64,000 nucleotides of DNA from Candidatus Micrarchaeota archaeon (lineage in GTDB: Archaea; Micrarchaeota; Micrarchaeia; Micrarchaeales; CABMGC01): NCBI GenBank assembly GCA_021852055.1, contig JAJZOD010000010.1, positions 50,770 through 114,769 on the forward strand, read 5' to 3'. Of the stretch, positions 2,108 through 62,784 are shown in pieces. Under the pieces are notes generated by a model that was not told the DNA's origin, ran no database searches, and saw only the letters and a program-made list of their open reading frames with translations. Within the stretch, counting starts at the first letter, position 1, and the number at the start of each line of letters is the position of its first letter. A program made the position numbers and the translations under genes.

Positions 2108-2159
2108 GGGTGAAGCCCCTTATCTCATGTAATATAAGCAATTGTGGGTGTTTAGTTAT

Positions 2160-5285: not shown

Positions 5286-5343
5286 CACGCATATCATGGA
5301 TTTGAACATCAAGACTAATTAATGCCTGCATGTTCTAAACTAA

Positions 5344-5847
5344 TTACCTCTTAGCAAACCTGATGTAAATTCTGCGGTACTGCAGCAGGACCGATGCGAC
5401 TAAAATAACAACTATTGCCAGATATGCATACAGGAGCAGGAACGGGGAAGATGCGCTGCTCTTAATGCCGGAGCCTATGCTGATCGTCAGGATCAGGCTC
5501 AGAAGCCCCAAGAAAGCTATTACCAATGCATGCACAGTGAATATCATGCTGAATGCAATGCTCTTGTTGTCTGCACCTTTCTTATCTTCAATGCGATAAA
5601 ACAGTGAAGGAAGATTCATAAGGTACGGGTACTTTTCAAATAGTGTGTATCTGTACCGGATTAACAGGAGCAATACTGCCAGAACGCAGGTGAACACTAG
5701 AGGCACTATGAATAGCGTTACTTTTGCTATTATTCCAAAATAATAGAATCCTGCAATCCATGAGAGAAGCACAAATAGCAATCCAATGGCTATGAGTGCC
5801 TTGGCTACACCTTCCAAGCCGAATCTTTTAAGTGTTCTTACCGGCAT
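5344..5847 (-). CDS. Integral membrane protein (4 TM), unknown function
   Basis: 167 aa with four clear hydrophobic helices and a basic C-terminus. No family recognised. Confidence 0.55.
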   Translation of the reverse strand: MPVRTLKRFGLEGVAKALIAIGLLFVLLSWIAGFYYFGIIAKVTLFIVPLVFTCVLAVLLLLIRYRYTLFEKYPYLMNLPSLFYRIEDKKGADNKSIAFSMIFTVHALVIAFLGLLSLILTISIGSGIKSSASSPFLLLYAYLAIVVILVASVLLQYRRIYIRFAKR

Positions 5848-5962
5848 AATACCCGATACAAAAATAGTACATCAAAGCATTTATACTTTAAGTCACTACA
5901 AACACAGATAACGCAAGCCTTATAGATTAGTGCCCTAAATATTATAAAGAAAATGTGATAGT

Positions 5963-6154
5963 ATGAAAGGCAAAGTGAAGATGTTCAATGCCGCACGCGG
6001 TTTTGGATTCATATCTGGAGAAGATGGTAAAGATGTATATGTGCACGCTACGGCTGTGCAAAATGGTGCAGCGCTTGCAGTTGGCGATTCTGTAGAGTAT
6101 GATGTCGAGCAGGGCGAAAAAGGCCCAAGGGCTAAAAACGTCAAAAAGGCCTGA
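5963..6154 (+). CDS. csp: Cold-shock domain protein (CspA family)
   Basis: MKGKVKMFNAARGFGFISGEDGKDVYVHATAV contains the RNP1-like (RGFGFI) and RNP2-like (VYVH) motifs of bacterial-type CSD proteins. At 63 aa it is the typical length. Confidence 0.9.
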   Translation: MKGKVKMFNAARGFGFISGEDGKDVYVHATAVQNGAALAVGDSVEYDVEQGEKGPRAKNVKKA

Positions 6155-6177
6155 TTTAACTCAGCGTCTTTGTGGCG

Positions 6178-6206
6178 GTGCATGCGCTTGTTTTTAATGC
6201 ATGCAC
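6178..6206 (+). terminator. Hairpin GTGCATGC-N13-GCATGCAC with an internal T5, followed by T-rich tracts
   Basis: Perfect 8-bp inverted repeat 24 nt after the csp stop. The oligo-T runs at about 6245-6270 fit archaeal termination signals. Confidence 0.4.
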
Positions 6207-6358
6207 TGTCACACTCTAATCCTAAGTTGTGCTGACCTGTAAACCTTTTACTTTTATTCAGTTTTTTCTAGAAAGAAGGCCAGACAAAAGCTGTACAGTA
6301 AGCTATGCATAAGCATGCGAGCCGACTAATGCGCCGCTGTCCTTCTGTTGCAGACCGT

Positions 6359-7522
6359 TCAAAAGCCACTCCTGCTTAGCATATTATAACCCTCTAGGAT
6401 AATCCTGTATGTTGTCTCCCAGTCTATGCAGGCATCAGTTATGGACACTCCGTATTTAAGCTCCTGCACATTTCCGTTTACCTTTTGTTTGCCCTCGTTT
6501 ATGTTCGACTCAAGCATCACTCCGAATATGCCCGTATTTCCATCTGCAATCTGCTTGATTATGTCCATAAAGACCCCTGGTTGCTTTGTGTGGTCTTTCC
6601 CAGAGTTTCCGTGGCTGCAGTCTATAATGCATCTGCTCTCCAAGCCGTTGGCATGCAGCTCCTCTTGAGCCTTCCTAACGCTTTCTTTGTCGAAATTAGT
6701 GCCATTTTCACTGCCTCTAAGGACAATATGCGTATTTTCATTTCCACGCGAGTCTATAATTGCAAATTTCCCTGATGAATTCAGCCCGAAGAACCACTGC
6801 GGGCTTCTGGCCGAGATTACAGCATCTATTGCAGGCTGTATATCTCCGTTTATATCGTTCTTGAATCCAACCATCATGGATAGTCCGGATGCAATTGCCC
6901 TCTGTGTCGGTGACCTTACTGTCCTTGCACCTATGGCTGCCCATGAGATGAGATCTGATATATACTGCGGCACAAACGGGTCAACGAACTCTGTTGCTGA
7001 AGGCAGTCCGAGTTTTGCATTGAACAGAAGCAGTTTCCGGGCCATTTTGAGGCCATCATTAATAGCTTCGCGTTCATCAAGGTATGGTTCATTTATAAGC
7101 CCTTTCCAGCCTTTGCCGGTTCTAGGCTTTTCAAAATAGGCTCTCATGACAAGCATAAACCTGTCCTCAACTTTCTTGCCAAGCTCATGAAGGCGCAATG
7201 CGTAGTCCTGAGCAGCTTCAGTATCATGGATAGAGCACGGTCCGCAGATTACAACTGTCCTTCTATCCTCCTTTCTGTCATGTTGCCTAAATATGCTCTG
7301 TATGGTCTTCCTGCTCGCCAGTACGTTATCCAAGGCGCAGGAATCCAGTGGCAGCTCCCTCTTCAACTCCAAAAGGTCTGCAGGAGTCCGGTAGCCCCTG
7401 ACATTAACGTCTTCTATGTTGGATAAGCCTGTTACACCAAAGCTGTGGCTGCCGTTTTCGCTGCGCTCAGGTATAACAGTTCCTGCATTGTTTCCTTTAT
7501 TTTCAATTCCAATCTTTTTCAT
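6359..7522 (-). CDS. aroG: 3-deoxy-7-phosphoheptulonate (DAHP) synthase, class I-alpha (AroF/G/H type)
   Basis: VVICGPCSIHD, YFEKPRTGKGWKGLINEP, IGARTV, GFKN and VSITDACIDWE align along the whole length with E. coli AroG as I recall it. The ORF extends to 7555, but ATG 7522 (MKKIG) is preferred. Confidence 0.9.
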   Translation of the reverse strand: MKKIGIENKGNNAGTVIPERSENGSHSFGVTGLSNIEDVNVRGYRTPADLLELKRELPLDSCALDNVLASRKTIQSIFRQHDRKEDRRTVVICGPCSIHDTEAAQDYALRLHELGKKVEDRFMLVMRAYFEKPRTGKGWKGLINEPYLDEREAINDGLKMARKLLLFNAKLGLPSATEFVDPFVPQYISDLISWAAIGARTVRSPTQRAIASGLSMMVGFKNDINGDIQPAIDAVISARSPQWFFGLNSSGKFAIIDSRGNENTHIVLRGSENGTNFDKESVRKAQEELHANGLESRCIIDCSHGNSGKDHTKQPGVFMDIIKQIADGNTGIFGVMLESNINEGKQKVNGNVQELKYGVSITDACIDWETTYRIILEGYNMLSRSGF

Positions 7523-7834
7523 AACACCACTTTTAAACAGGAGCAGCGCAAGCACTCTTCAGATGCGTATTGAATAATGCCCAATAAAATGGTATGAGTT
7601 GCAGAATTAAATGCAGCTGCAACAGATAAAAAGAGAAAAGATGCTTACGCCGTTTTGCCTTTAATAGAAGGTTCCATACTGCGAGCTAAACAGTACGACC
7701 TCTGCACTAAATCCGTAGCGACAGTATAACATAAAAGCAACTTTTTATAATGAAATGTTTGCACAATAAGATTATTAAGTGTTTTGCCTCAAGCCTCAAA
7801 CAGATGCTGCCTCGCTGTTAAACTCCTGCAGCCT

Positions 7835-8125
7835 TTATAGCATTCCGCCGAGTTTTAAGATTATCATGACGAATACTGCCGGAAGGCCGAATATGGCCGT
7901 TGCCACAAGCACTGCCAGCGTTATCGGTATCCCGAGTCCGAATATCGCATTTATAAGAAATATAGCTATAAGCCCAAGCACGCTGTTTACTACAAGGCCC
8001 AGGAGTACTCTGCCAAGTGAAAACACTATAAATACGACTGCTATTATGGCAACTACTATAATTATCTCAGATGCTACTGAACCCAATGCCAGCGAGAGCA
8101 GTAAAGGCAGCATGACTTCAAACAT
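7835..8125 (-). CDS. BofA-family small membrane protein
   Basis: 96 aa. INAIFGLGIPITLAVLVATAIFGLPAVFVMIILK resembles the conserved C-terminal half of B. subtilis BofA. Confidence 0.55.
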   Translation of the reverse strand: MFEVMLPLLLSLALGSVASEIIIVVAIIAVVFIVFSLGRVLLGLVVNSVLGLIAIFLINAIFGLGIPITLAVLVATAIFGLPAVFVMIILKLGGML

Positions 8126-8290
8126 ATACCTTACTACATCACGATTTTATAAAGCTTTTTCGGTTGAGATTGCAGACCTCTCCTGTCTGAAGCCCTTGCG
8201 TATTATTGTATGGTTTATTGCCTCTTTTTTGTACATTTTTGTACAGAAGACTTATATTATTTAATATGCAGATTTTAACTGGTGAGGGAA

Positions 8291-8455
8291 ATGAAAACAA
8301 AAAGGAGGATAAGGCGACTGATAAAGGAACTAAGAGAGCTTGAATCTGCAAACAGGGATGGAAAGATGGCTGGTATTGCGCTTCTCGGTGCGCCAGATAT
8401 GCAAAAGCATCTTGGCGCATTGGAGTGGAACAGTAAGGCAGGCGTAGGTTCCTGA
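8291..8455 (+). CDS. Small basic hypothetical protein (54 aa)
   Basis: Below the ORF-track cutoff. ATG 8291 is directly preceded by GGTGAGGG (8281-8288), with an AT-rich TATA-like stretch near 8255-8270. Translation is MKTKRRIRRLIKELRELESANRDGK... Confidence 0.35.
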   Translation: MKTKRRIRRLIKELRELESANRDGKMAGIALLGAPDMQKHLGALEWNSKAGVGS

Positions 8456-8466
8456 TGCTTGGCGTT

Positions 8467-8895
8467 TCAGCGCATCAGAGGCATAATATGCGGGGCAGAT
8501 CCGCTTGACTTGATTTTCGAGTAAGACTTAGCGTGCACGCCGTTTATAAATTGTATAAGCATTATTGCGTCTTTGTAATATATGCCTGTAATCCACTTTA
8601 TATTCTCCTGGCTCTCCTGCTGTTCGCCTATGAGGCTGAAGTGAAGCCTGCAATAACCCATGCCTCTCTCCATCTTAACCTCTGTTATGTGTTCGTATCT
8701 TATCATCTTGACGCTGTGGCTCATGCCAAATATATCGCATCTGACTATTATAATGCGTCTGTCTGTAGCAAATGCATGTGCAGGAGCAAGAATCCTGCCT
8801 CCTCCAAGCCTGTGCTCCCTGATCTCCATCCCGACCTCTTCGCCTTCTGCGAGAAGGTCATCTAGTATAGCATATTCGCGCCTGTGGCCCCCCAT
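8467..8895 (-). CDS. Bacterial-type PH domain (bPH_2/YdbS-like) protein
   Basis: LLAEGEEV...FATDRRIIIVR...IRYEHITEVKMERGMGYCRLHF follows the bPH_2 pattern. ATG 8895 (MGGHRREY) is preferred over 8922. Confidence 0.45.
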   Translation of the reverse strand: MGGHRREYAILDDLLAEGEEVGMEIREHRLGGGRILAPAHAFATDRRIIIVRCDIFGMSHSVKMIRYEHITEVKMERGMGYCRLHFSLIGEQQESQENIKWITGIYYKDAIMLIQFINGVHAKSYSKIKSSGSAPHIMPLMR

Positions 8896-33648: not shown

Positions 33649-34698
33649 TCAGATATAATTGTTAACCTTCAAAAGCTCAGCGTTGAGTATTGTTCCTCCA
33701 GCAGCCCCGCGTATTAAATTATGACCAAGAACAGTAAATTTATAATCTAATATATTACATTTTCGTAGTCTACCTATAATAGACGCCATGCCATTCTCTG
33801 CATCAACATCAAGTTTCGGTTGAGGTCTGTTATCATTATGTAAATAAATTATAGGATTTTTAGGAGCTGATGGAAGGCATAGGTTTTTTATTGGATTGAA
33901 ATTATTAAATGCTTTTATTATGCCATCTTTATCAGTCGTGTTAGAAAGTTTTACACTGATGCTCTCCATATGCCCGTATTTCACTGCTACTCTGTTGCAT
34001 TGTGCACTTATATCAATACTTTCTGGAATTATTTTTTTATTTGATAAAGAACCAAAAATCTTGAGTGGCTCTGTTTCTATTTTTTCTTCCTCACCTTTTA
34101 TGAAGGGTAGTACATTATCGATAGCGTCAAGTGATGGTACGCCAGGATATCCGGCTCCGCTCAAAGCTTGCATAGTAGTAACCATTACCTTCTCGATACC
34201 AAAGGAATCATAAAGTGGTTTTAGTGCAAGACAAAGTTGAATAGTAGAACAATTTGGATTTGCTACTATGAAGCCTGTCCATCCTCTCCTCTCCTTTTGT
34301 ATTTTTATCATACCTAAATGGTTAGGATTTACTTCTGGTATTAGTAATGGAACATCTTCCTCCATACGATGATTCATAGCATTAGTTGAAACAGGATAGC
34401 CGAACTTTGCAAACTTCTCTTCAATTTCAAAGGCTACACTTGAGTCCAAAGCGGATAGTATAATATCGCAATCAAGTTTTGGATTACAGTCTTTTACAAC
34501 AAGATCTCTTACCGTTTCGGGAATCTCATTTCCAATACTCCATCTAGCGTCCATTACTTCGGCATATGTCTTTCCGGATGTTCGCTCAGATGCTGCTATT
34601 TCACTAATCTCAAACCAAGGGTGATTTTCAAGAAGATGAATTATCATTTGTCCTACAACACCGGTCGCACCCAAAACACCAACTTTTATTTTTTTCAT
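33649..34698 (-). CDS. asd: Aspartate-semialdehyde dehydrogenase
   Basis: VGVLGATGVVGQ NAD motif and active-site ANPNCSTI. 349 aa. Confidence 0.9.
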   Translation of the reverse strand: MKKIKVGVLGATGVVGQMIIHLLENHPWFEISEIAASERTSGKTYAEVMDARWSIGNEIPETVRDLVVKDCNPKLDCDIILSALDSSVAFEIEEKFAKFGYPVSTNAMNHRMEEDVPLLIPEVNPNHLGMIKIQKERRGWTGFIVANPNCSTIQLCLALKPLYDSFGIEKVMVTTMQALSGAGYPGVPSLDAIDNVLPFIKGEEEKIETEPLKIFGSLSNKKIIPESIDISAQCNRVAVKYGHMESISVKLSNTTDKDGIIKAFNNFNPIKNLCLPSAPKNPIIYLHNDNRPQPKLDVDAENGMASIIGRLRKCNILDYKFTVLGHNLIRGAAGGTILNAELLKVNNYI

Positions 34699-34700
34699 TT

Positions 34701-36020
34701 TTAAACACCAAAAAATGCGGTATGTAATTTTTTAACTGCTTCTCCTAATTGTTCTTCTTTAATTACAAAACTTTGATTTATCTCTGACATGCTTGAAGAT
34801 ATCATCTCTACATCTATATCAGTTAATGCTGAAAAAATTATGCCCATCACATTAGGAACATGAATCATGTCGTTTCCTACAACTGAGATTATTGTCCTGT
34901 TTTCTTTAATATCAATCTTTCCTATTTCCTTAAGATCAGATTCCGCTTTATCTATTCTTTGATTTTTCAAATTGTCTACAGTAACAGAAACATTTATTTC
35001 AGAAGTTGATACCATATCCACAGAAATGTTGTTTATATCAAAAATCTCAAAAATCCTTCTTAAGAAGCCTTTAGCTTCAAGCATTCTGGGTGTGGATATA
35101 TTTATTACTTTTATATTTTTTTTATAAGTTATAGAACTGATTCTTGACTTTTTTATTATATTGTTCGAAACTACAGTTCCTAGATTTTGGGGATTAAAGG
35201 TATTTAATATCCTTACAGGTATATTTTTTTCTATTGCAGGAAATATTGTTTTAGGATGTAAGATTTTTGCGCCCAATGAGGCTATTTCCGATGCTTCCTC
35301 AAATGATACAGAATCTAATTTTTTAGGATTTTTTACTAATTTAGGATCGGCAGTCATAATTCCATCAACATCTGTCCATATTTGAACTTCTTCAGCATTT
35401 ATTGCAGCACCTATTATTGTGGCTGTGTAATCACTACCACCTCTCCCTAAGGTTGTTATTTTACCTTTAGTATCTTTAGCTATAAATCCTGTAATAACTA
35501 ATATACTGTTTATATTTGATATGCGCTCTTTTATTTCAGGATATTTATCTTTTGAAACTTCAAATTTTGATTCTTTATTTATTATAATGCCTATGTCAAA
35601 AGCATCTTTTGCTTCTGAATCGATACCTAAACTTTTTATGTAACTGGCAACTATTCTGGCAGAAAACCTTTCACCGAAAGACACAAAATTGTCTGCTATT
35701 CCTTGATTCATTTCTTTTAATAAGGATACACCATAGGTTAGATCAGAAAGAAGTTTTACTTCTTTATCGATTATATCTTTATTTAGTTTTAAGAGCGTTA
35801 TAATTTCATAATGCTTATAAATTATTTCATTTAATAAGGCTTTCTGCTTTGTTCCTATTACTGCTTCTTTAGATAATTCTATCAATAAATCTGTCACACC
35901 CCCAATTGCGGAAACTACTATCACTGGTTTACGATTTATATTTTTTTTTATTATCTCTGCAACATTTTTTATTCTTTCTGCATTTGCTAGGGAACTGCCT
36001 CCAAACTTCATTACTAACAT
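34701..36020 (-). CDS. lysC: Aspartate kinase
   Basis: VMKFGGSSL, GRGGSDYTA, and C-terminal ACT repeats. Confidence 0.9.
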   Translation of the reverse strand: MLVMKFGGSSLANAERIKNVAEIIKKNINRKPVIVVSAIGGVTDLLIELSKEAVIGTKQKALLNEIIYKHYEIITLLKLNKDIIDKEVKLLSDLTYGVSLLKEMNQGIADNFVSFGERFSARIVASYIKSLGIDSEAKDAFDIGIIINKESKFEVSKDKYPEIKERISNINSILVITGFIAKDTKGKITTLGRGGSDYTATIIGAAINAEEVQIWTDVDGIMTADPKLVKNPKKLDSVSFEEASEIASLGAKILHPKTIFPAIEKNIPVRILNTFNPQNLGTVVSNNIIKKSRISSITYKKNIKVINISTPRMLEAKGFLRRIFEIFDINNISVDMVSTSEINVSVTVDNLKNQRIDKAESDLKEIGKIDIKENRTIISVVGNDMIHVPNVMGIIFSALTDIDVEMISSSMSEINQSFVIKEEQLGEAVKKLHTAFFGV

Positions 36021-36021
36021 T

Positions 36022-36774
36022 TTATCCCTTTATTATTGAAGAGATTACTTCTTCGAAACTGTAAAATCCTTTTTTATCATTTATCCATTTAGCTGCAAGA
36101 AGTGCGCCCTCAGCAAATCCTGCCCTGTTCCTTGCAATATGTCTTAATTCTATATTATCGGAGATACCATCAAATCCTAAAACATGCGTTCCGGGAAAAA
36201 ATCCTGCTCTAATGCTGCCAACATGTATTTCGTCGGGTTCTATCTTCCTGCCGTCTATTCTGTCAAAAACTAACTTCTTTTTTCTTTTAATGTTAGAGAG
36301 GAGTATATTTCCCAAATTTTTGGCTGTCCCACCTGGAGAATCTGTTTTTTGATTATGATGTATTTCGTATATGTAAGGATCATACATTGGAAATTTATCT
36401 ATAATAAAAGATGCGCTTCTTGCAATACTAAAAAATATATTCATCCCTATGGAAAAATTAGGACTGTATATCATTCCTGAATTATTAGCTTTGATTATTT
36501 CTCTGGCAATTTTAATATTATCATACCAACCTGTTGTTCCTACAACTAATGCTTTTTTATAACTTGCAACTTTGGTTATAGTTTCAATAATATTATCTGG
36601 AGAACTAAAATCTATTATTACATCTGCATCTTCTACTGCTTCTTTTGATAATTCTTTATGGGTTGCATTTTTTCCTTTACGATCTATTATTGAGGATATT
36701 TCAAATTTATTTGCTAAAGCCATACTCTCTACTTCATGGCCCATCTTTCCATAGCCTATCAATGTAATTTTCAT
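36022..36774 (-). CDS. dapB: 4-hydroxy-tetrahydrodipicolinate reductase
   Basis: IGYGKMG N-terminus and EIHHNQKTDSPGGTA signature. Confidence 0.9.
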   Translation of the reverse strand: MKITLIGYGKMGHEVESMALANKFEISSIIDRKGKNATHKELSKEAVEDADVIIDFSSPDNIIETITKVASYKKALVVGTTGWYDNIKIAREIIKANNSGMIYSPNFSIGMNIFFSIARSASFIIDKFPMYDPYIYEIHHNQKTDSPGGTAKNLGNILLSNIKRKKKLVFDRIDGRKIEPDEIHVGSIRAGFFPGTHVLGFDGISDNIELRHIARNRAGFAEGALLAAKWINDKKGFYSFEEVISSIIKG

Positions 36775-36786
36775 ACGCTTACCTTT

Positions 36787-37683
36787 CTAAATTATTTTTA
36801 GCTCGTTATAAAGCATCAGTGTTTTTTTAAGTTGTTCTCTGTTTGTTTGGTTCATTTCGCATAAAGGAAGTCTAAAATTACCAGAGGGCATCCCGACAAT
36901 TGACATTGCAGTTTTTATAGGTATCGGATTTGTTTCTATAAATAAATCTTTAAATAAAGGCATTAACTCAAAATGAATTTTAGAAGCTTCATTAATTTTA
37001 CCTGAATTAGCAAGCTTTACCATTTTTAAAACACGATCTGGTAGTATATTACTAGCTACAGATATTACACCCTTACCGCCAACACTCATTAATGGCAAGG
37101 TCATACTGTCATCGCCACTTAAAACTATAAAGTCTTCAGGTAGTTTTTCTAAAACCTCTATCATCTGGTTTATATTGCCTGAGGCTTCTTTGACACCAAT
37201 AATGTTATCTAACTTACTTATCTTAATTAGAGTTTCTGTAGTTATATTTGTACCTGTTCTTCCAGGTATATTGTAAATAAGTATTGGTATATTTACTGAT
37301 TCAGTTATACTTTTAAAGTGTCTATAAATCCCTTCTTGTGTTGGTTTGTTATAGTAAGGAGTAACTATTAATACTGCATCAACTCCTAGTTTCTCTGCTT
37401 TTTTAGTTTTTTCAATTGTTTTCTGCGTTGAATTAGTGCCGGTACCTACAATAACAGGAACACATCCGTTTGTTTCCTCTAACACAGTAGTTATTATTTT
37501 TTGGAATTCATCATCATTAATTGTAGGAGATTCACCTGTCGTGCCAAGTGGCAATAACCCAGAAACTTCTTTTTGAATTTGAAATTTTACATTTGATCGG
37601 AGCCCGTTGTAATCAACTTGAAGATTATTGTCAAAGGGGGTTATCATAGCAGTTATACATCCGCTTAGTTTTTTGTTAATCAT
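36787..37683 (-). CDS. dapA: 4-hydroxy-tetrahydrodipicolinate synthase
   Basis: AMITPF, GTTGESPT, YNKP, and GVKEASGN (catalytic Lys). Confidence 0.9.
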   Translation of the reverse strand: MINKKLSGCITAMITPFDNNLQVDYNGLRSNVKFQIQKEVSGLLPLGTTGESPTINDDEFQKIITTVLEETNGCVPVIVGTGTNSTQKTIEKTKKAEKLGVDAVLIVTPYYNKPTQEGIYRHFKSITESVNIPILIYNIPGRTGTNITTETLIKISKLDNIIGVKEASGNINQMIEVLEKLPEDFIVLSGDDSMTLPLMSVGGKGVISVASNILPDRVLKMVKLANSGKINEASKIHFELMPLFKDLFIETNPIPIKTAMSIVGMPSGNFRLPLCEMNQTNREQLKKTLMLYNELKII

Positions 37684-54861: not shown

Positions 54862-55467
54862 ATGAACAGGAAGGAAGTGGTGTTCAGAAGGCTTGGATGC
54901 GACGCCATAGAGGGAAGGCTCAGCTTCACACAGCTTGCTCTATCGAAGGAACTGAGAATGTCGCTGAGCATTGTAAACAGCGCAGTAAAGAGCCTCGAAG
55001 GCATCGGCGCCGTGGTGCTCAGGGAGCGAGGCTTTGAGGTAATATCCCTGAGCAAACTGCTTCTGTACTGGGCGACTCACAGGAACCTCAAGAAAGACAT
55101 AGTATACCAGACAAGGGTGGAGATGCCTGTAAAGGAAATAGAGCGGACCATGCCTGACGGAATCGCATTCACCGGCTATTCCGGCTATAGGCTCCGTTTC
55201 GGCGAGGCCCCTGCAGACTACAGCGAAGCGTATGCATACGCCACGGACGCAACATTGGAGCATATCAAGAAAAGGTTCAGCCACAATGACAAGATACCGA
55301 ATGTGATAATCCTGCGCTGCGACAGCGAACTGGAAAACGAGATATTGGGCAAAAAGCTGAAGGGCTCATCCGTATGCGCAGCGCAGCTTTTTGCAGACTT
55401 ATGGAACATGAACCAGTGGTATGCGAAGGACTTTGTCGATGCATTATCAAAGAGACTGGGAATATGA
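54862..55467 (+). CDS. wHTH protein, AbiEi-like putative antitoxin/regulator
   Basis: LSFTQLALSKELRMSLSIVNSAVKSLEGIGAV HTH. A TATA-like CATATTTAAATG lies about 25 nt upstream of ATG 54862 (leaderless). ATGA overlap with the next gene. Confidence 0.45.
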   Translation: MNRKEVVFRRLGCDAIEGRLSFTQLALSKELRMSLSIVNSAVKSLEGIGAVVLRERGFEVISLSKLLLYWATHRNLKKDIVYQTRVEMPVKEIERTMPDGIAFTGYSGYRLRFGEAPADYSEAYAYATDATLEHIKKRFSHNDKIPNVIILRCDSELENEILGKKLKGSSVCAAQLFADLWNMNQWYAKDFVDALSKRLGI

Positions 55468-56090
55468 CTGAGTTCTGGAACAGCGACACAACAGAAGCGA
55501 GCTGGAATGGATTGCAGAGGCTCTCCAAAGAGATCGATTTCGTGCTTATAGGTGGATGGGCAACGTATCTTTACACCAAGCTTCAAAAATCCAAGGACAT
55601 AGACATAGTGGCGGATTACAATTCGTTGCGGGTTCTGGAGGATACCTATCGGCTTTCCAAGAACGACAGGCTTTGCAAGTACGAAATAAAACTTGAGAGG
55701 TATGATATTGACATATACCTGCCAGGCTACTCCGTGCTGACGGTGCCTCCAAAGGACATACTGCATAACCACCACACCAGCATAGAGGGCTTCAATGTTG
55801 CAACTGCAGAGGCGCTTCTTGCTCTGAAGCTTGGCGCGGCCTCGGACAGGGGCAACAGCATCAAAGGGCAGAAGGACAAGATAGACATTTTAGGCATACT
55901 CTTCTATGCCAGGCCTGACCTACAGAAGCTCAAGGCGATGCTGGCAGCATACGGCAAGCCGCAATACTTAGAGCTCCTGCAGTCAACCCTCGCGGGGTTT
56001 AATCTGGACAGCCTGAACTACCTGAATCTTAACCAAAACAGCTTTTCCAAGCTGAAGAAAAGGCATCTGGAAGAGCTCAGGAGCATCTGA
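55464..56090 (+). CDS. Minimal nucleotidyltransferase-fold protein, AbiEii-like putative toxin
   Basis: IDFVLIGGWATYLY...SKDIDIV is a GG/GS...DxD polymerase-beta-type NTase signature. Translationally coupled to the HTH gene. Confidence 0.5.
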   Translation: MTEFWNSDTTEASWNGLQRLSKEIDFVLIGGWATYLYTKLQKSKDIDIVADYNSLRVLEDTYRLSKNDRLCKYEIKLERYDIDIYLPGYSVLTVPPKDILHNHHTSIEGFNVATAEALLALKLGAASDRGNSIKGQKDKIDILGILFYARPDLQKLKAMLAAYGKPQYLELLQSTLAGFNLDSLNYLNLNQNSFSKLKKRHLEELRSI

Positions 56091-56376: not shown

Positions 56377-56727
56377 TTAATCACATTTATACATTGAAGT
56401 AAACGCTTTTAAGTGTTTGCTGAAGTGAACACATGCGCAGCAATTCAAAATTCCCACGCTGAAGGATATGCAATTGCAGGATAATCATTGCAGCATGCTG
56501 CATCATAAAACATGCATTGTGCATTGATGCAACCAAAAAACTGCACTGTAAGATAATATGCAATATAATCGGGTTTAGTTAATCGGATTTAGTGTACAAG
56601 CTCACTGCGTTTGCCGTTTTTCCCTTAATCAGGTCCTTTTTCATGAACAGCACAGATGTGTGGTGCCTGTTATTCCTGTACCTCCGTTTCCTGTATCAAT
56701 GTTTTATGTAATGTTTCCTGTAGAAGT

Positions 56728-56928
56728 TTACTGCATAAAGCAGGTTTGCGCTTGTTTCCATGTTTCCATTATAGCGACATGCCATCCTTTGCCTTTTGCA
56801 TATTCTTTATATTTGTCGAGCAGCAGCGCTGCCTGCCCTGATTTCTTGTTTCCTGAAGAATATAAAAAATAGACTGACTGCTTATATTTCAGCTGTATGC
56901 ATCACTTTTCAGTTGCCTTCCGATGCAT
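56728..56928 (-). pseudogene. Small ORF interrupted by an in-frame TGA at codon 9
   Basis: The minus strand reads MHRKATEK-TGA-CIQLKYKQSVYFLYSSGNKKSGQAALLLDKYKEYAKGKGWHVAIMETWKQAQTCFMQ*. The protein-like composition continues after the stop (56902-56904). Confidence 0.3.
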
Positions 56929-56993
56929 GCTGTCAGTAAAAAGACTTATTAAGCTTTATGCAGTGAGTATAAATGCAACAGTGGGTGTACCAA

Positions 56994-57758
56994 ATGGAAA
57001 GGGTAAAGACCGGAATACCGGGGTTTGATGATCTTATAGAGGGCGGGATACCGAAGGGCTTTAATGTTCTGATTACCGGTACACCAGGTACCGGCAAGAC
57101 AATATTTGCATTGCAGTATTTATACAGCGGCGCAATGAAAGGCGAAAACGGGCTTCTTGTAACACTAGACAGCAAACGCCAGGAGCTGATAGAACAGGCG
57201 CAGTGCTTTGGCTGGGATCTTGAGTCATTGCATAAGCAGGATAAGCTGTCAATTTTAGAGGTTCCGATGGACAAGGTTGAGATGGACCTATTTTCTATGA
57301 TAGAAGACGAAGTGCAGCGGATAGACGCAAAACGCCTGGTCTTCGACAATCTGATGAACTTCGCAATAAACATAGACCAATTCAAGGTTCCGGTGTCGTT
57401 CATAATCGGCAATCCAGAAGTGGCATCAGTCATGGGCAATGAGAAGATGTACTACACAGGCAAGTCAGAGAAAAGGATAACGTATCTTCTTATAAACGAG
57501 CTCTCCAGATTGAATACTACGAATATAATGATTACATCGGCTCCGGAAGGCGAAGAAGCACAGCTTACGTCGGATCAAGTGAGCGAGTTCGCTGCTGATG
57601 GAGTAATTGTAATGTACAACCAGCTAGTCGGCGCAAGACATGCAAAAACCATGACAATACTCAAAATGAGGAAAACTAACAACAGCCCGTATATACACGA
57701 TGTTGAGCTTGGGAAGGATGGTGTTATAATAAGACCTGCGCAAGCGGTGTATGAGTAG
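56994..57758 (+). CDS. KaiC/RecA-superfamily single-domain ATPase (archaeal KaiC-like)
   Basis: GIPGFDDLIEGGIPKG, Walker A GTPGTGKT, Walker B LVFDNL. The TATA box GTATAAATG ends about 20 nt before ATG 56994, so the ORF start at 56973 lies in the promoter. Confidence 0.85.
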   Translation: MERVKTGIPGFDDLIEGGIPKGFNVLITGTPGTGKTIFALQYLYSGAMKGENGLLVTLDSKRQELIEQAQCFGWDLESLHKQDKLSILEVPMDKVEMDLFSMIEDEVQRIDAKRLVFDNLMNFAINIDQFKVPVSFIIGNPEVASVMGNEKMYYTGKSEKRITYLLINELSRLNTTNIMITSAPEGEEAQLTSDQVSEFAADGVIVMYNQLVGARHAKTMTILKMRKTNNSPYIHDVELGKDGVIIRPAQAVYE

Positions 57759-57767
57759 TGTATAAAG

Positions 57768-58331
57768 ATGAGCTTCCTTGAAAAGTTAATGCTTTCGAAA
57801 CAGATAAAATTTGAGGATGGACAAACAGAAATATTAAAACAACGAGTTATTTTTGTTCCAAGCGATTTTTTGGGTGAATACACATTCGAAATTTTAAGAG
57901 AGCCGGAGTTAGTTAAATTGATTTACTTTACATTAAAACAAGGGGTAAATAATTTTGGAGAGCAAATAATGAGAACATACGGAAGTACTATAACTGACTA
58001 CTCAAAATTGCTTAGAGATTTATCAGATTTAGCAGGATGGGGTAAAACTACCTATGAATCATTAAATATAGAGCAAGGTAGTGCTACGCTGATTATAGAA
58101 AATTCACCAGTAAGTTCTTACTTAAAAGGTAGAGTTAACTTACCCTGTGACCATATTAGTCGCGGTGTGATTGCTGGTATTGCATCAATTGCACTTAAAA
58201 AGGATTTAGATGTCTTAGAAATAGAATGCATTGCTACCGGTAATAAGGCATGTAAAATGGTTCTAGACTCTAAAGACAAGTTAAAGTCTAATTTTCCAAG
58301 GTTTTATAAAATGCAATTTGGTTCAGAATAA
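57768..58331 (+). CDS. Stand-alone XylR_N-like + V4R (4-vinyl-reductase) small-molecule-binding domain protein, paralog 1
   Basis: C-terminal PCDHISRGVIAGIASIALKKDLDVLEIECIATGNKACKMVLD has the V4R C-x-H...G...G...E-C...G...C pattern. The N-terminus resembles the XylR/DmpR A-domain. Confidence 0.7.
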   Translation: MSFLEKLMLSKQIKFEDGQTEILKQRVIFVPSDFLGEYTFEILREPELVKLIYFTLKQGVNNFGEQIMRTYGSTITDYSKLLRDLSDLAGWGKTTYESLNIEQGSATLIIENSPVSSYLKGRVNLPCDHISRGVIAGIASIALKKDLDVLEIECIATGNKACKMVLDSKDKLKSNFPRFYKMQFGSE

Positions 58332-58350
58332 TAGTTAATAGTGTGGAATA

Positions 58351-58926
58351 ATGTCGTTTTTTGAAAAATTATTGTTATCTAAACAACTATCTTTTAATTT
58401 AGGTGACATAGAATTATTAGACCAGAGATTAGTTATAGTATCTTCAGAAGCATTTGCAAATTATATATATTCCATAAACGATAGCAACGAGTTAGCAGTA
58501 AGTAATTTATATCAAATAGCTAAAAAGGCAATGATACAACTCGGTATAAATATAGGTAAAAAATATTCTTTTTCATTTGGAGACTACTCGACATGGTTTG
58601 TAGAAATTGCAAGACTTAATGGTTGGGGAAAGGCCAAATGGGAGTTATTAGATAAAAAGAACTTTAAAGGAATTATATCAATTGAAGATTCTCCTATAAG
58701 TACTGCTTTAAAAAACAAAGTAAAAAACCCATGTGATCATATAATAAGAGGATTGATTGCCGGTGGTGCTACGAGTTCATTCAAAATGGATGTAGAAGTC
58801 ATAGAAACAGAATGTATTGCACAAGGAAAAGAAAAATGCATTTTTGTAATAGACACTGATAGCAATCTAAAATCACAATTTCCTGACTTATATACGAAGC
58901 AGTTAGTATACAGAAGATTAGGTTAG
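58351..58926 (+). CDS. Stand-alone XylR_N-like + V4R domain protein, paralog 2
   Basis: MSFFEKLLLSKQLSF parallels MSFLEKLMLSKQIKF of paralog 1, and PCDHIIRGLIAGGATSSFKMDVEVIETECIAQGKEKCIFVID is the V4R motif. Confidence 0.7.
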   Translation: MSFFEKLLLSKQLSFNLGDIELLDQRLVIVSSEAFANYIYSINDSNELAVSNLYQIAKKAMIQLGINIGKKYSFSFGDYSTWFVEIARLNGWGKAKWELLDKKNFKGIISIEDSPISTALKNKVKNPCDHIIRGLIAGGATSSFKMDVEVIETECIAQGKEKCIFVIDTDSNLKSQFPDLYTKQLVYRRLG

Positions 58927-58934
58927 TTGATTGA

Positions 58935-59510
58935 ATGGTTAACCCCAAATTATTGGCATCCTCAACAGCAGATTTATGGGAAACATTCGATAACCGTGAG
59001 TTTGGTAGGTTTAGGTCCATAGCCACTCAGATGTTCCGTGAATTAGGATACAAAAACTCAAGCAAGAAAATTAGCTTTTACTTAATGAAAGCGTGTATCT
59101 ATTATGCTGAAATGGAAGACAAATTTGAAAGTAAAGATATTTTGGATAAGTACAAAATAATCAAAAAGTACAAGAGACGTATTATTATAGCACTAAACGG
59201 TGCATTCAAGTCTGCTAATTTTAAAAATTCAGAACTTACTGCAACATACCGTACTGGTTGGTGGTTGAACTTCTTCAAGGAGCACATAAATGGCAATAAA
59301 ATTTATTATATTCCAAGCTTATGGTACTTGTTTTTAGAGCATTATAATCGGTCTAATAGATTACTGCCATCTATAAAATCTGTATTAACTTTATATATGG
59401 CAACTACTAAAGGGCATAATAAAAGAAATCGGAAGGAGCTTATTAAGAGATTAACTGAATATTGGAAAATTGAATTAAATTATAATAAGGAATTATTTGT
59501 GATTGAATGA
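58935..59510 (+). CDS. Hypothetical basic helical protein (ORFan)
   Basis: 191-aa ORF, 8 bp after V4R paralog 2. K/R/Y/W-rich. No motif recognised. Confidence 0.45.
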   Translation: MVNPKLLASSTADLWETFDNREFGRFRSIATQMFRELGYKNSSKKISFYLMKACIYYAEMEDKFESKDILDKYKIIKKYKRRIIIALNGAFKSANFKNSELTATYRTGWWLNFFKEHINGNKIYYIPSLWYLFLEHYNRSNRLLPSIKSVLTLYMATTKGHNKRNRKELIKRLTEYWKIELNYNKELFVIE

Positions 59511-59551
59511 TATATTTTGGTATTTAAATTCGAGTATTTTTGGGTATAACA

Positions 59552-60256
59552 ATGGCAACAATCAGACATCTTGGCATAATAATAGACGGAAATAGGCGAT
59601 TTGCAAAGAAAACTGCCCTACCATACAATCAAGTTTACAAATTAGGAGCACAGAAAGTGTACGAGGTAGTGCGTTATGTGTTTACAAAGACAGATATTCC
59701 AGAGTTAAGTATCTACGCCTTGTCTTATGACAATCTCCTCAGAAAATCAAAGGAACTCGACGCAATATTAAAATCACAAAAAGAGGAGTTCGATAGGTGG
59801 ATAGATGATAGTTTCTTCGAGAAGTACGACATAAAAATCAGATTTATAGGCGAGTTGAATTTACTACCTATAGGCGTTGTAAAAAGCTGCATTGCATTGA
59901 TGGAAAAAACATCAAACAATAAGGGGAAAACACTTAATCTGCTTATGGCTTATTTTGGAAGTAGAGAAATAGTCCTTGCTGTAGAAAGGATACTTAAACA
60001 TAAGAATATTTTTGCAAACGGCAATGGGAAAAACATAGATGTTCAGGATCTTATACAACAAAACCTTTCAATAAAGGAACCGGTTGATTTGATAATACGT
60101 ACTGGCGGAGGGGCAAGGTTGTCTGGATTTTTGCCTTGGCAGTCTGAGTATGCAGAGCTATGCACTATAAAGAAGCTCTGGCCTGAAATAGAAACAAAGG
60201 ATATTCAAGAGACAATTGAGCATTATAATGCTGTCGAAATGAAAAGGGGAAAATGA
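59552..60256 (+). CDS. Divergent cis-prenyltransferase (UppS-family) protein
   Basis: IIIDGNRRFAKK and DLIIRTGGGARLSGFLPWQSEYAEL match the UppS framework, but several canonical residues differ. A TATTTAAATT box at 59521-59530 precedes ATG 59552. Confidence 0.7.
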   Translation: MATIRHLGIIIDGNRRFAKKTALPYNQVYKLGAQKVYEVVRYVFTKTDIPELSIYALSYDNLLRKSKELDAILKSQKEEFDRWIDDSFFEKYDIKIRFIGELNLLPIGVVKSCIALMEKTSNNKGKTLNLLMAYFGSREIVLAVERILKHKNIFANGNGKNIDVQDLIQQNLSIKEPVDLIIRTGGGARLSGFLPWQSEYAELCTIKKLWPEIETKDIQETIEHYNAVEMKRGK

Positions 60257-60257
60257 A

Positions 60258-61376
60258 TTAGGTCACGATTTCCAATTCAATTTCTACGTCAAATACATTA
60301 TTAGCCATATCAGATGATACAGCCTTTGCTTTGTATCTGTGCTCAGAGTTTCCGCTGAGAAATCCCTCTACGGCACCTCTAAGAATTGGAAAGCTTGTGT
60401 ACTCCGTTGCTTTTGGGTACCATGGGTAACCATTAAAAAGTATTGTAGTCTTATTTGCTACGCCTTCTTTTACTTCTACCAATCCAAATCCAAACGCACT
60501 GAATAACTCTGCCAGGTTTTTCAACGGATTTTGATATTTCTTATAATGAGAACCTATATTATGAAATGGCAAGTATGCTGCATTGTGCACTGTTTCTTTG
60601 TCAAATGTTTCTTCTATGTCAAACAATAATGATATCTCTACGATTATTACCCTTTCTCTGGATTCTTTCACAGAGATTATTCCAGGTTTGTACTCTAATG
60701 TTCCTTCTTTAAGAAGTTCGCCGAAACTTTTTAACGCTTCTGATCTGGTCTCCTGCGGAAAATTATTTTGCATGTAGCTGCTGAAATCTATCCTTTGAGG
60801 AATTTCATTTTCAGTAAAATGCTTTATGCTGCGCTGCTTTAAAATTTCAGGACTGCTTATAGTCAAAACGTACCTGCTACTTGATATTTTTTTAACATTG
60901 CCTTCCAAAAAGTAATCGCTAGTTAATTGGCAACATAGCCCAACAACGCCTCCAACGGTAAGGACATATCCCATACCGTTCTTCGATGTTATTACAAGGT
61001 TTTCGGTTTGTAATTCAAATGTTTTACTGGCAAGATCAACATTTGACAAGGTTATTGTCTTGGCGTATCCTGCGTCTACGAAGAAGTTGAATATTGTGGA
61101 TAGAGTGAGTCTGTTTATATTTCCTCTGGGAAACCTGTTGAACATAGCATAACGATAACCAAATCTTTTGCCTACACGATAAAGTTCTTTTATTCCCTCA
61201 TCATGGCCTTTGTTTTTTACAACTAAGTTTTCTAGCTCTGTAAAAAACAGTTCTGGGATTACTAAATTTCTTACGAAGAAATTCCGACCATCAAGTGAAT
61301 AAAAACCATACGAAATATACCCTTTTTTGTCAAAAATCTTAGCTTTTGACAATGGTGTATTATCTATACTGACCAT
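60258..61376 (-). CDS. Protein with two degenerate V4R-like modules
   Basis: Two halves each show ...ELYRVGKRFGYRY... / ...GMGYVLTVGGVVGLCCQ... and ...FGFGLVEV... / ...ILRGAVEGFLSG... . The Gly pattern resembles V4R, but the Cys/His ligands are missing. Confidence 0.4.
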   Translation of the reverse strand: MVSIDNTPLSKAKIFDKKGYISYGFYSLDGRNFFVRNLVIPELFFTELENLVVKNKGHDEGIKELYRVGKRFGYRYAMFNRFPRGNINRLTLSTIFNFFVDAGYAKTITLSNVDLASKTFELQTENLVITSKNGMGYVLTVGGVVGLCCQLTSDYFLEGNVKKISSSRYVLTISSPEILKQRSIKHFTENEIPQRIDFSSYMQNNFPQETRSEALKSFGELLKEGTLEYKPGIISVKESRERVIIVEISLLFDIEETFDKETVHNAAYLPFHNIGSHYKKYQNPLKNLAELFSAFGFGLVEVKEGVANKTTILFNGYPWYPKATEYTSFPILRGAVEGFLSGNSEHRYKAKAVSSDMANNVFDVEIELEIVT

Positions 61377-61479: not shown

Positions 61480-62784
61480 TCACTCCATCTTCCTGTAAAC
61501 CATGCTTCCGCTTATCACATTTGTTATTATCAGCCTTTTTATCCTGCTTCCCTTTACTTTCCTGAGCTCCTCCAATAACTGGTCAAGGTCGTGGCCCGTA
61601 AATACGGGAAGTATAAGCACAAGACGCTGCAGATGCCCCAGTTCACCAACAAGTAGGTATTTATCGACTATCTGATTCTTGTTAGGGGCGTAGATGCAGC
61701 TCTTTATATATTCGTATTCGCTTGAATAGAGCTTGTGATTTGAATCTTCAAGAAATAGAAGTGACAGGTAGCTTGCTGCAGTGTTTTCCATAGAGATAGT
61801 AATTCGCTTTATTATGCCTTTGGCAGTAAGGCGGCTGTATAAATATCTGCTTGAACCCTTTCCAAAACCATGTTCCTTGTCTATGTCAGCAAATGATCTC
61901 CTTCCATCCTCGCTCAGGCTTCTGAGAACCAAAAACTCCCGCTTTGTTATAGGAGGAACTGACCCGCTGTGCTTAGCATCTGTTATAATGTCCTCCAAAA
62001 TTCTGAAAAAGCTTTCGCCAGGCCGCAGCGTACCATACCGCGTTATGAACGCTGTAGTGGTCAGGTGTATATTGTAATTTGGAAATAAGAGCTCACGAAG
62101 CTTATTTGATGGCTCAATGCGCCAAGGTCCTTTGCCAATAGGATACAGTGTGTATATCACTACGTCATAATCGCCATGGGTAATAAATGCAAACTGCACA
62201 TTTTTATAGTTCTTCAGTGTGGAGCGTATCTCCTGCACACTTGGGGCATCACCTTCAAATCTTATAAATATCATGTGCTCATGGAAGCCTAGCTTTTCGG
62301 TATTTAGCTCCGGGATATACCTTATCCTGTGCTTTTCCTCAATATTCTTTATACGCCAATTAAGTGTGCTTGGTTTCATGCTTAGTTTCTTCGATAATTC
62401 ACCTAAGGTTATCCTTGCATTAAGGCTTAGCTGTTTTATTATTTCATCTTCATGCTTACCTGAATAAATGCTGGTATTACGAACGCGGCTGGTCTCTTGC
62501 ATGCTCCTTGTCTTAGTTTTGTGCCTGTGTACCATGCCCTCCAGACTGTTAGTTGCAAGTTCTGCATCGCGTTTTATTCCGGGTATGAAGAGCCCGTCTG
62601 GCGTTATCCTACCTATGTAATTGCTCAGGCTGCGCACCTTTCTGTGCTCCTTGTCCCATACTGTTGTTGCTTCATAAACGTACATGTGACCGTTTATCCT
62701 CTTTAGACTGAGATACCTATCGCTATCCCTCTTGAGTTTCTCGAATGTTTCAAGCACTTTAACTGGTACCGCTTCGCCTGCCAT
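61480..62784 (-). CDS. Large regulator with two Lrp/AsnC-like HTH+RAM modules and a unique N-terminal extension
   Basis: EIIKQLSLNARITLGELSKKLSMKPSTLNWRIKNIEE (HTH 1) and REFLVLRSLSEDGRRSFADIDKEHGFGKGSSRYLYSRLTAKGII (HTH 2). The N-terminal about 100 aa are unassigned. Confidence 0.55.
   Translation of the reverse strand: MAGEAVPVKVLETFEKLKRDSDRYLSLKRINGHMYVYEATTVWDKEHRKVRSLSNYIGRITPDGLFIPGIKRDAELATNSLEGMVHRHKTKTRSMQETSRVRNTSIYSGKHEDEIIKQLSLNARITLGELSKKLSMKPSTLNWRIKNIEEKHRIRYIPELNTEKLGFHEHMIFIRFEGDAPSVQEIRSTLKNYKNVQFAFITHGDYDVVIYTLYPIGKGPWRIEPSNKLRELLFPNYNIHLTTTAFITRYGTLRPGESFFRILEDIITDAKHSGSVPPITKREFLVLRSLSEDGRRSFADIDKEHGFGKGSSRYLYSRLTAKGIIKRITISMENTAASYLSLLFLEDSNHKLYSSEYEYIKSCIYAPNKNQIVDKYLLVGELGHLQRLVLILPVFTGHDLDQLLEELRKVKGSRIKRLIITNVISGSMVYRKME

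Follow-up and report, generated by a model that had tools for sequence, protein, structure and literature searches.

What joins a KaiC-like ATPase, proteins of the V4R fold and a prenyltransferase in a single archaeal gene cluster, and which of these genes make up its core? The cluster in question lies on a 64,000-nucleotide stretch of a Candidatus Micrarchaeota genome (contig JAJZOD010000010.1, positions 50,770 to 114,769), referred to here as the window. Five co-directional genes encode a KaiC-like ATPase, two stand-alone V4R proteins (V4R1 and V4R2), a small protein designated ORF191 and a UppS-like cis-prenyltransferase, and a convergent gene encodes a 372-amino-acid (aa) protein that we designated D372. 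An earlier note, made from the sequence, had proposed that these six genes form a ligand-sensing module centered on the V4R proteins. The six open reading frames (ORFs), their spacing and the convergent 1-bp junction were all confirmed from the sequence, and the domain assignments of the six-gene set were upheld by hidden Markov model, structure and profile tests. The conserved core was found elsewhere, in the KaiC-like ATPase and D372.

The KaiC-like ATPase and D372 are linked to isoprenoid-lipid enzymes

Gene neighborhoods of relatives were obtained from the encoding contigs, from a genome-collection scan, which supplied locus L015, and from a metagenome scan, which supplied 26 loci at 25-41% identity. 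Genes were annotated with local phmmer searches, Pfam and NCBIfam. The genome collection was scanned with one peptide pattern and yielded 2 genomes, a number that is a lower bound. Linkage between KaiC, D372 and a prenyl-lipid enzyme recurred in about 30 loci. The KaiC gene adjoined D372 or shared its cluster in 23 of the 25 loci with enough flank: it was immediately upstream and co-directional in 16 (15 of these pairs are separated by -1 to 18 bp), was convergent just downstream of D372 or flanked the D372-enzyme pair in 5 more, and in the window and L001 it was part of one cluster with D372. D372 abutted an isoprenoid-lipid enzyme in every locus with the relevant flank (19 of 19). The adjoining enzymes were UbiA (PF01040), PcrB/GGGPS (PF01884), members of the GGR family (TIGR02032, PF01494) and UppS. 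The best NCBIfam models for the linked UbiA proteins were synthases of digeranylgeranylglyceryl phosphate (DGGGP), matched below their cut-offs. Start or stop codons of D372 often overlapped the UbiA, PcrB or GGR genes by 4-35 bp.

A neighbor-joining tree of D372 resolved three deep clades (25-40% identity), among which five or more gene orders occur, all of them with the linkage kept. These orders were KaiC>D372>UbiA, GGR>D372>UbiA, UbiA>GGR>D372><KaiC, KaiC>D372>PcrB>HAD>GGR and KaiC-V4R-V4R-ORF191-UppS><D372. The last of these, common to the window and two relatives, formed a derived subclade nested among the KaiC>D372>UbiA loci. The linkage thus outlasts rearrangement, sequence divergence and a change of enzyme family, which strongly supports functional coupling. 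These results indicated that the conserved core consists of the KaiC-like ATPase and D372, and that the stand-alone V4R paralogs are an optional addition found with ORF191 and UppS in one subclade, not the center of the system. The isoprenoid or lipid connection suggested in the earlier note was strongly reinforced, as relatives of D372 always adjoined isoprenoid-lipid enzymes and almost always a KaiC of the same subfamily.

The two relatives that share the window-type order were L001 and, as far as its contig reaches, L009. Their existence runs counter to the refuting case set out in the earlier note, in which the homologs would nowhere else occur together. The L009 contig is 1.8 kb long, stops within the cluster and carries KaiC-V4R1-V4R2-ORF191. 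L001 carries KaiC, one V4R gene, an ORF191 homolog, UppS, a gene for a GGR-like FAD protein and a convergent D372 homolog (D379), with identities to the window proteins of 50, 55, 23, 65 and 42% for KaiC, V4R, ORF191, UppS and D379, respectively. The flanks of L001 are wholly unlike those of the window.

In the window the cluster is a low-GC island, with a GC content of 0.30-0.37 from V4R1 to D372 versus 0.45-0.49 for the upstream genes. The L001 cluster is likewise low in GC (0.27-0.39 versus 0.52-0.56 in its flanks), and the contrast was also seen in L010 and L012; over these four loci, clusters range from 0.27 to 0.43 and flanks from 0.45 to 0.56. No contrast was found in distant loci. These values suggest that the cassette was transferred into a higher-GC clade. 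They would also agree, as would the fast evolution of ORF191, with a horizontally acquired island that is no functional unit, in which a housekeeping UppS stands beside unrelated signaling genes by chance. We regard such a coincidence as very improbable, because the linkage holds across three deep clades, through five or more gene orders and with enzymes of four isoprenoid families, because spacing is tight or overlapping, and because distant loci keep the linkage without any GC contrast.

Other genes were observed in the vicinity of these clusters. In two loci the KaiC/D372/prenyltransferase cluster is followed by a gene for a protein of 677 aa (L001, 11761-13794) or 632 aa (L012, 2893-4788); the two are 58% identical, had no Pfam or NCBIfam match and may represent a further module component. 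Two D372 paralogs are encoded in L015 (54% identity; 3885-8613) and in L030 (3286-5939), and two KaiC genes flank the D372-UbiA pair in L022 (5926-9569) and in L015. These paralog pairs suggest that hetero-oligomeric versions of the module exist. In PcrB-type clusters, a HAD-family hydrolase is encoded between PcrB/GGGPS and GGR (L024, 1835-2620; L028, 5156-5827) and could act as a phosphatase on a lipid or glycerol-phosphate intermediate. A DJ-1/PfpI-family gene, 40% identical between the two loci, lies within 2-3 kb of the module in L001 (13838-14359) and L015 (8635-9282), in neighborhoods that otherwise differ. Homologs of UbiA, PcrB, GGR, the 677-aa protein and DJ-1 were not detected in the 64-kb window by tblastn; the 677-aa protein is thus absent from it.

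D372 is a tandem V4R protein

D372 had no direct match in Pfam or NCBIfam (E <= 0.1), and its profile had no match among PDB sequences. An AlphaFold2 (AF2) model built from a six-sequence alignment (pLDDT 84.7, pTM 0.87) contained a beta-beta-beta/alpha-alpha-alpha/beta-beta/alpha/beta-beta pattern twice, at approximately residues 13-181 and 218-371; the two halves of the protein lie at about 1-185 and 215-372. The top 50 Foldseek matches in the PDB included MopR, PoxR, DmpR, H-NOX, TRAPPC3/Bet3, BcsD/AxCesD and YslB, all members of the V4R / H-NOX / Bet3 fold group. Foldseek probability was ~1.0 for most matches, the target TM-score was ~0.5 for V4R and Bet3 proteins, and each alignment covered ~150-180 columns, or roughly one half of D372. 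The Foldseek output is silent on which half is covered, and the duplication is drawn from the secondary-structure pattern and from profile comparison with hhalign.

For that comparison, an exhaustive representative search supplied 128 full-length family members, giving a deep profile of 129 sequences. With it, hhalign matched the C-terminal half to V4R (96.2%, E = 2.5e-9), the N-terminal half to V4R (87.5%, E = 3.6e-6) and the two halves to one another (84%, E = 7e-6). With shallow profiles of 5-6 sequences, the comparisons of D372 with V4R and of one half with the other were both non-significant. The AF2 model, the Foldseek matches and the deep-profile alignments together bear out the description of D372, in the earlier note, as a protein of two degenerate V4R-like halves.

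The family of D372, as delimited by the exhaustive profile search, numbers 313 representative clusters; 125 matched at E <= 1e-30, and almost all have lengths of 355-390 aa. The homologs are annotated as hypothetical proteins, and every one that carries a taxon name comes from Candidatus Micrarchaeia or from a Micrarchaeota metagenome-assembled genome. Family members share Gly-x3-Gly helix motifs (G69/G73, G142/G146 and G334/G338 in D372), which resemble the glycine doublets described by Podar et al. for V4R and Bet3 (PMC2253512). Three Cys columns and a Glu are present in the N-terminal half of ~80% of members, and the C-terminal half is without Cys columns; the window protein has lost the N-terminal Cys site (T130, I164, Y169). 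No transmembrane or membrane-anchoring segment was predicted in D372. The family is absent from Pfam, and no description of a tandem-V4R architecture was found in the literature.

The fold of D372 invites comparison with two groups of proteins. The sensors XylR, DmpR, PoxR and MopR have the V4R fold in common with it, and three of them (MopR, PoxR and DmpR) are its top Foldseek matches; a hydrophobic ligand cavity is also common. They differ in that the locus is archaeal, has no AAA+ sigma54 or helix-turn-helix (HTH) output and sits in a context of lipid biosynthesis rather than aromatic catabolism, and in that D372 is a covalent V4R tandem whose window copy lacks the zinc site and whose KaiC-like partner is separately encoded. 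TRAPPC3/Bet3, TRAPPC6 (Trs33) and Asgard TRAPPC3-like proteins share the V4R-related alpha/beta fold (PMC2253512), and the homo- and heterodimers of TRAPPC3/Bet3-TRAPPC6 paralogs mirror both the V4R1/V4R2 pair and the halves of D372. TRAPPC3/Bet3 has a lipid (palmitate) channel, and Thor-TRAPPC3 a zinc site (PMC10933270). Here, in contrast, there is no Pfam Bet3 match, the locus encodes no longin, roadblock or GTPase protein, and the context is enzymatic rather than one of trafficking.

V4R1 and V4R2 carry a zinc-type motif and no output domain

V4R1 and V4R2 matched PF02830 at 34.4 and 42.6 bits (gathering score 31) and are 41% identical to each other. Each consists of a V4R domain alone, with no other domain and no HTH; as they lack an AAA+ sigma54 domain and an HTH, assignment to the XylR/DmpR-type NtrC-family sensors was rejected, and a Sigma54_activat match on the KaiC-like ATPase (15 bits) was treated as noise. 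An orthologue of V4R1 is present in L009 (62% identity), and orthologues of V4R2 occupy the same position in L009 (67%) and L001 (55%); among 5.8 billion proteins, close relatives of V4R2 formed three clusters only. The family profile matched MJ1460 (PDB 2osd) at E = 3.6e-4. Stand-alone V4R genes also occur in the PcrB clade, in the order V4R>KaiC>D372>PcrB in L025 and farther off in L028 and L035.

The C-x-H...G...G...E-C...C motif reported in both paralogs by the earlier note proved invariant: C127, H129, G133, G137, E151, C154 and C162 are conserved across five V4R orthologues. The motif comprises a Cys...Glu-x2-Cys-x7-Cys element of zinc type, which the XylR, DmpR, PoxR and MopR sensors also have, and a Gly-x3-Gly helix motif. 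Its spacing fits what we take to be the Cys/Glu/Cys/Cys zinc site of the MopR structure.

A cysteine cluster of this kind might alternatively serve a redox, thiol or metal sensor of the type of MsvR, the methanogen HTH-V4R redox regulator, with the signal passing through KaiC to an Lrp-type regulator and the prenyltransferase being one target among several. MsvR is an archaeal V4R protein with conserved cysteines that modulate its DNA binding (PMC3729527), an Lrp/AsnC-type gene is adjacent to the cluster in the window and in L015, and the DJ-1/PfpI genes recur near the L001 and L015 modules. Similarity of V4R1 and V4R2 to the MsvR model NF053755 is weak, however (22.9 and 25.1 bits, where the cut-off is 220), and is confined to the C-terminal V4R part; MsvR has an N-terminal HTH, and the window proteins have no DNA-binding domain. 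In PoxR, MopR and Thor-TRAPPC3 the cysteine cluster forms a structural zinc site that shapes the cavity (PMC10933270, PMC5847659). In the window copy of D372, the conserved core partner, none of the three family Cys positions is kept, and the association that holds throughout the loci is with lipid enzymes, not with redox genes. A redox sensor is therefore improbable.

The KaiC-like ATPase belongs to a distinct D372-linked subfamily

The KaiC-like ATPase matched PF06745 at E = 4.6e-53 (180.4 bits versus a cut-off of 26.6) and is a single-domain protein of 254 aa, or 261 aa if translated from the ATG at 56973. It scored below the circadian KaiC equivalogs (TIGR02655, 114.6 bits versus 546; NF006799, 137.9 versus 408). 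A bona fide circadian KaiC was rejected on these scores and on the single domain, which lacks the CI+CII tandem, and the protein is called a KaiC-like ATPase. Its nearest solved relatives were KaiC CI domains and PH0186 (2zts), the latter being the nearest single-domain one (E = 4.7e-36). Walker A reads GTPGTGKT. In place of the KaiC TFEE, which holds the catalytic Glu-Glu pair, the protein has TLDS and so keeps one acidic residue.

The D372-linked KaiC proteins have their own insertion after Walker B. Identity was 46-50% between the window protein and the D372-adjoining KaiCs of L001, L012 and L015 (46-68% among the window, L001, L012 and the first L015 KaiC, L015a), and phmmer scores reached 100-130 bits in distant loci; the unrelated second KaiC of L015 was 24% identical and scored ~53 bits. 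Archaeal KaiC-like ATPases characterized so far (ArlH, GvpD, CirA) are regulators. PH0186, ArlH/FlaH, GvpD and CirA, for which a role as signal transduction hubs has been proposed, share the single-domain PF06745 architecture and an operon with putative input proteins; they differ from the window subfamily in its post-Walker B insertion and in its TLDS for TFEE. In the literature searches, no report was found of a tandem-V4R partner or a lipid-gene context for archaeal KaiC-like ATPases.

Alignments with homologs begin at residue 8 of the long ORF, the IMG product call is 254 aa, and a TATA-like gtataaa lies ~25 bp upstream of 56994. The start at 56994 is therefore probable, and the operon transcript is probably leaderless, starting at 56994 with gtataaa as its putative promoter.

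A P-loop NTPase in a low-GC island might also belong to an anti-virus defense system or to mobile-element cargo. A DUF6036/AbiEii-like nucleotidyltransferase pair lies ~1 kb upstream, and the KaiC-like ATPase had weak P-loop matches to PADLOC models. Those matches were generic and reached at most 22 bits, V4R1, V4R2, ORF191, UppS and D372 had none, and the defense-system reading was rejected for want of any defense-model signal from PADLOC. No integrase, repeat or tRNA was found near the cluster, and scans of the window returned no tRNAs or Rfam families. With core lipid enzymes as the conserved neighbors, a defense or mobile-element function is scarcely credible.

UppS and ORF191 mark the window variant

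The UppS-like protein matched PF01255 at E = 1.9e-51 (175.2 bits versus 27) and TIGR00055 uppS at 151.8 bits versus 109.55, and its orthologue in L001, at the same position, is 65% identical. It keeps the equivalents of E. coli D26, R30, R194, R200, S202 and E213. Where E. coli UPPS has Glu198, the window enzyme and that of L001 both have Gly, near 'IRTGGGARLSGF', and YALSYDNLLR stands in place of the usual YAFSxENWxR. Such changes may be the sign of a distinct subfamily of cis-prenyltransferases.

ORF191, which the earlier note had taken for an ORFan, has syntenic homologs: one of 52% identity in L009, where it comes after both V4R genes, and one of 23% (E = 4e-5) in the equivalent slot of L001. 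It occurs specifically in the UppS variant of the cluster. The protein is basic (pI 9.8), aromatic-rich and fast-evolving, has no predicted transmembrane segment and had no match in Pfam, NCBIfam or PADLOC. An AF2 model from a two-sequence alignment was all-helical, with eight helices, at an unusable confidence (pLDDT 48.9).

Heteromeric cis-prenyltransferases, such as DHDDS-NgBR/Nus1 and the heteromeric enzyme of Methanosarcina, work with a non-catalytic accessory subunit. The window cluster resembles them in that the small proteins V4R and ORF191, as putative accessory factors, are conserved together with UppS. The two cases differ in that the known accessory subunits have a cis-prenyltransferase-like fold, whereas ORF191 is predicted to be all-helical and V4R alpha/beta.

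A candidate accessory module for isoprenoid-lipid synthesis

On the strength of the domain identities, the tandem V4R fold and the conserved operon-level linkage, we tentatively read the locus, with a confidence just short of even, as a variant form of a module accessory to isoprenoid-lipid synthesis, found so far only in Micrarchaeota, in which V4R-fold binding and a KaiC-like ATPase would control prenyltransferases. The KaiC-like ATPase and D372 most likely form a complex. In the window variant this core would be extended by V4R1 and V4R2, which probably pair as a Bet3/Trs33-like heterodimer, and by ORF191 as a small basic helical protein, and it would be wired to UppS instead of to DGGGP synthase, GGR or the synthase of geranylgeranylglyceryl phosphate (GGGP). 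V4R domains bind hydrophobic ligands, and the Bet3/TRAPPC3 channel holds palmitate (PMC2253512, PMC10933270). The hydrophobic pockets of the V4R-fold proteins would accordingly be candidates for binding prenyl-diphosphate or prenyl-lipid intermediates or products: polyprenyl diphosphate from UppS here, and geranylgeranyl diphosphate, GGGP or DGGGP in other variants. Pocket occupancy could then be relayed to the KaiC-like ATPase as a change in its nucleotide or phosphorylation state, and the ATPase would in turn switch the neighboring prenyltransferases, in their activity or their assembly, and so provide post-translational feedback on lipid flux. An Lrp-type regulator may contribute a transcriptional output. 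The controlled enzyme of the window would be a cis-prenyltransferase that makes the polyprenyl diphosphate precursor of a dolichol-type glycan carrier.

Several observations weigh against this reading. L010 and L017 have D372 and lipid enzymes with no KaiC in view. The KaiC subfamily is without the canonical EE pair, and its ATP turnover may be weak or absent. The loci come from related genomes, and the counts are not fully independent events. Just 2 loci, the window and L015, share the Lrp-like gene. Finally, the translational coupling of D372 to enzyme genes suits a sensor no better than it does a stoichiometric subunit with a structural or carrier role.

That last point leads to the view that the V4R-fold proteins are soluble lipid carriers or chaperones, which would pass intermediates from cytosolic enzymes (UppS, GGGPS) to membrane enzymes (DGGGPS-like UbiA, GGR) or else extract or salvage isoprenoid lipids from membranes, with a KaiC ring as ATP-driven loader and unloader. 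The 4-35 bp overlaps of D372 with UbiA, PcrB and GGR suggest equimolar co-assembly, tandem or paired V4R domains give two pockets, as in Bet3-Trs33 dimers (PMC10933270), and the stand-alone V4R proteins have no output domain. DPANN archaea are reported to recruit host lipids (10.1101/2023.12.06.570485). Micrarchaeota nevertheless encode lipid enzymes themselves, GGGPS and DGGGPS being present in all of their major lineages (PMC12892359), and neither D372 nor ORF191 has a membrane-anchoring segment.

BchJ, a V4R-only protein of bacteriochlorophyll clusters, whose product has an isoprenoid tail, is thought to handle intermediates and not to catalyze. Its proposed carrier role and the acyl channel of Bet3 offer the carrier function a precedent, although BchJ is bacterial and single-domain and has no KaiC partner. 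The best-studied V4R domains are allosteric sensors, and lipid loading is not known for any RecA/KaiC-family ATPase. A carrier function is the leading alternative, plausible but less probable than control through the ATPase. The more specific proposal that a KaiC-like ring and tandem or paired, Bet3-like V4R proteins form an ATP-driven machine that loads, extracts or hands over isoprenoid lipids for the ether-lipid and polyprenol pathways appears rather unlikely.

The earlier note knew of no described system of this composition, and full-text literature searches turned up none: in none of the papers returned was an archaeal KaiC connected to V4R, isoprenoid or lipid genes, although a 2017 KaiC survey (Makarova et al., mBio), the likeliest place for such neighborhoods to be listed, lay outside their reach and may mention such a link. 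The survey is, however, older than most Micrarchaeota genomes. A review related to the 2017 KaiC work has no mention of V4R or prenyl genes. The parts themselves come from known superfamilies (KaiC-like, V4R and cis-prenyltransferase).

Locus layout and neighboring features

The coordinates of the cluster and its associated features are collected in Table 1. The intergenic gaps from KaiC to UppS are 9, 19 and 8 bp, followed by 29 or 41 bp depending on the UppS start, and the convergent stop codons of UppS and D372 are 1 bp apart.

Table 1 Features of the KaiC/V4R/UppS cluster in the window
Feature	Position	Strand	Basis and size
KaiC-like ATPase	56973/56994-57758	+	ORF
V4R1	57768-58331	+	ORF, 187 aa
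V4R2	58351-58926	+	ORF, 191 aa
ORF191	58935-59510	+	ORF
UppS-like cis-prenyltransferase	59540 (TTG) or 59552 (ATG) to 60256	+	ORF, 238 or 234 aa
D372 (convergent 372-aa protein)	60258-61376	-	ORF
Lrp/AsnC-type protein, two winged HTH domains	61480..62784	-	PF13412 E = 9.3e-10 and second HTH at residues 279-336; 434 aa
TATA-like gtataaa, putative archaeal promoter	56966..56972	+	Sequence; ~25 bp 5' of ATG 56994

The Lrp/AsnC-type gene lies directly upstream of D372 and is co-directional with it. A homolog of its product (31% identity, E = 7e-43) heads the L015 cluster, and none was seen in the other loci. The protein may regulate transcription of the locus, and its membership of the module is tentative.

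The spacer before the KaiC gene (56377-56972) is non-coding and, at 596 bp, unusually long. On its minus strand is a frameshifted stretch (…GKGWHVAIME… / …NLLYAVNFYRKHYIKH and a stop) that resembles the C-terminus of a GNAT acetyltransferase; Pfam gave no support for such a remnant, and the candidate was rejected. Just 5' of the cluster, two overlapping genes (54862-56090, +) encode a 201-aa protein and the DUF6036/AbiEii-like nucleotidyltransferase (PF19502, E = 4.3e-5). The 201-aa protein had no Pfam match, a longer version of the ORF faintly matched HTH_41, and the pair may be an AbiE-type toxin-antitoxin system.

Elsewhere in the window, a second low-GC island (33649-37683, -; GC 0.32-0.33 versus 0.42 for the window) holds a complete-looking lysine/diaminopimelate operon encoding dihydrodipicolinate synthase (dapA), DapB, an aspartokinase with ACT domains and aspartate-semialdehyde dehydrogenase. 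This island fits the gain of biosynthetic pathways by horizontal gene transfer in some Micrarchaeota (PMC12892359). A 1047-aa ORF at 2142-5285 (+) had no Pfam match at E <= 0.01.

Implications

To our knowledge, almost nothing is known of how archaea regulate or organize the synthesis of ether lipids and polyprenol carriers, and we know of no dedicated regulator or carrier that has been described. The module is a concrete, testable candidate for such regulation or organization across a DPANN phylum, and it touches on membrane-lipid management in small, partly host-dependent archaea. One branch of the archaeal KaiC-like ATPases, which are abundant but enigmatic, would gain a function through it, and stand-alone V4R proteins a role in relation to lipids that bears on the evolutionary link from V4R to Bet3/TRAPP. 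If the module were a lipid-handling machine, archaeal membrane-lipid synthesis would have its first dedicated regulator or chaperone, and there would be a prokaryotic case of V4R/Bet3-fold proteins acting on membrane lipids, with a bearing on how the lipid-binding core of TRAPP arose.

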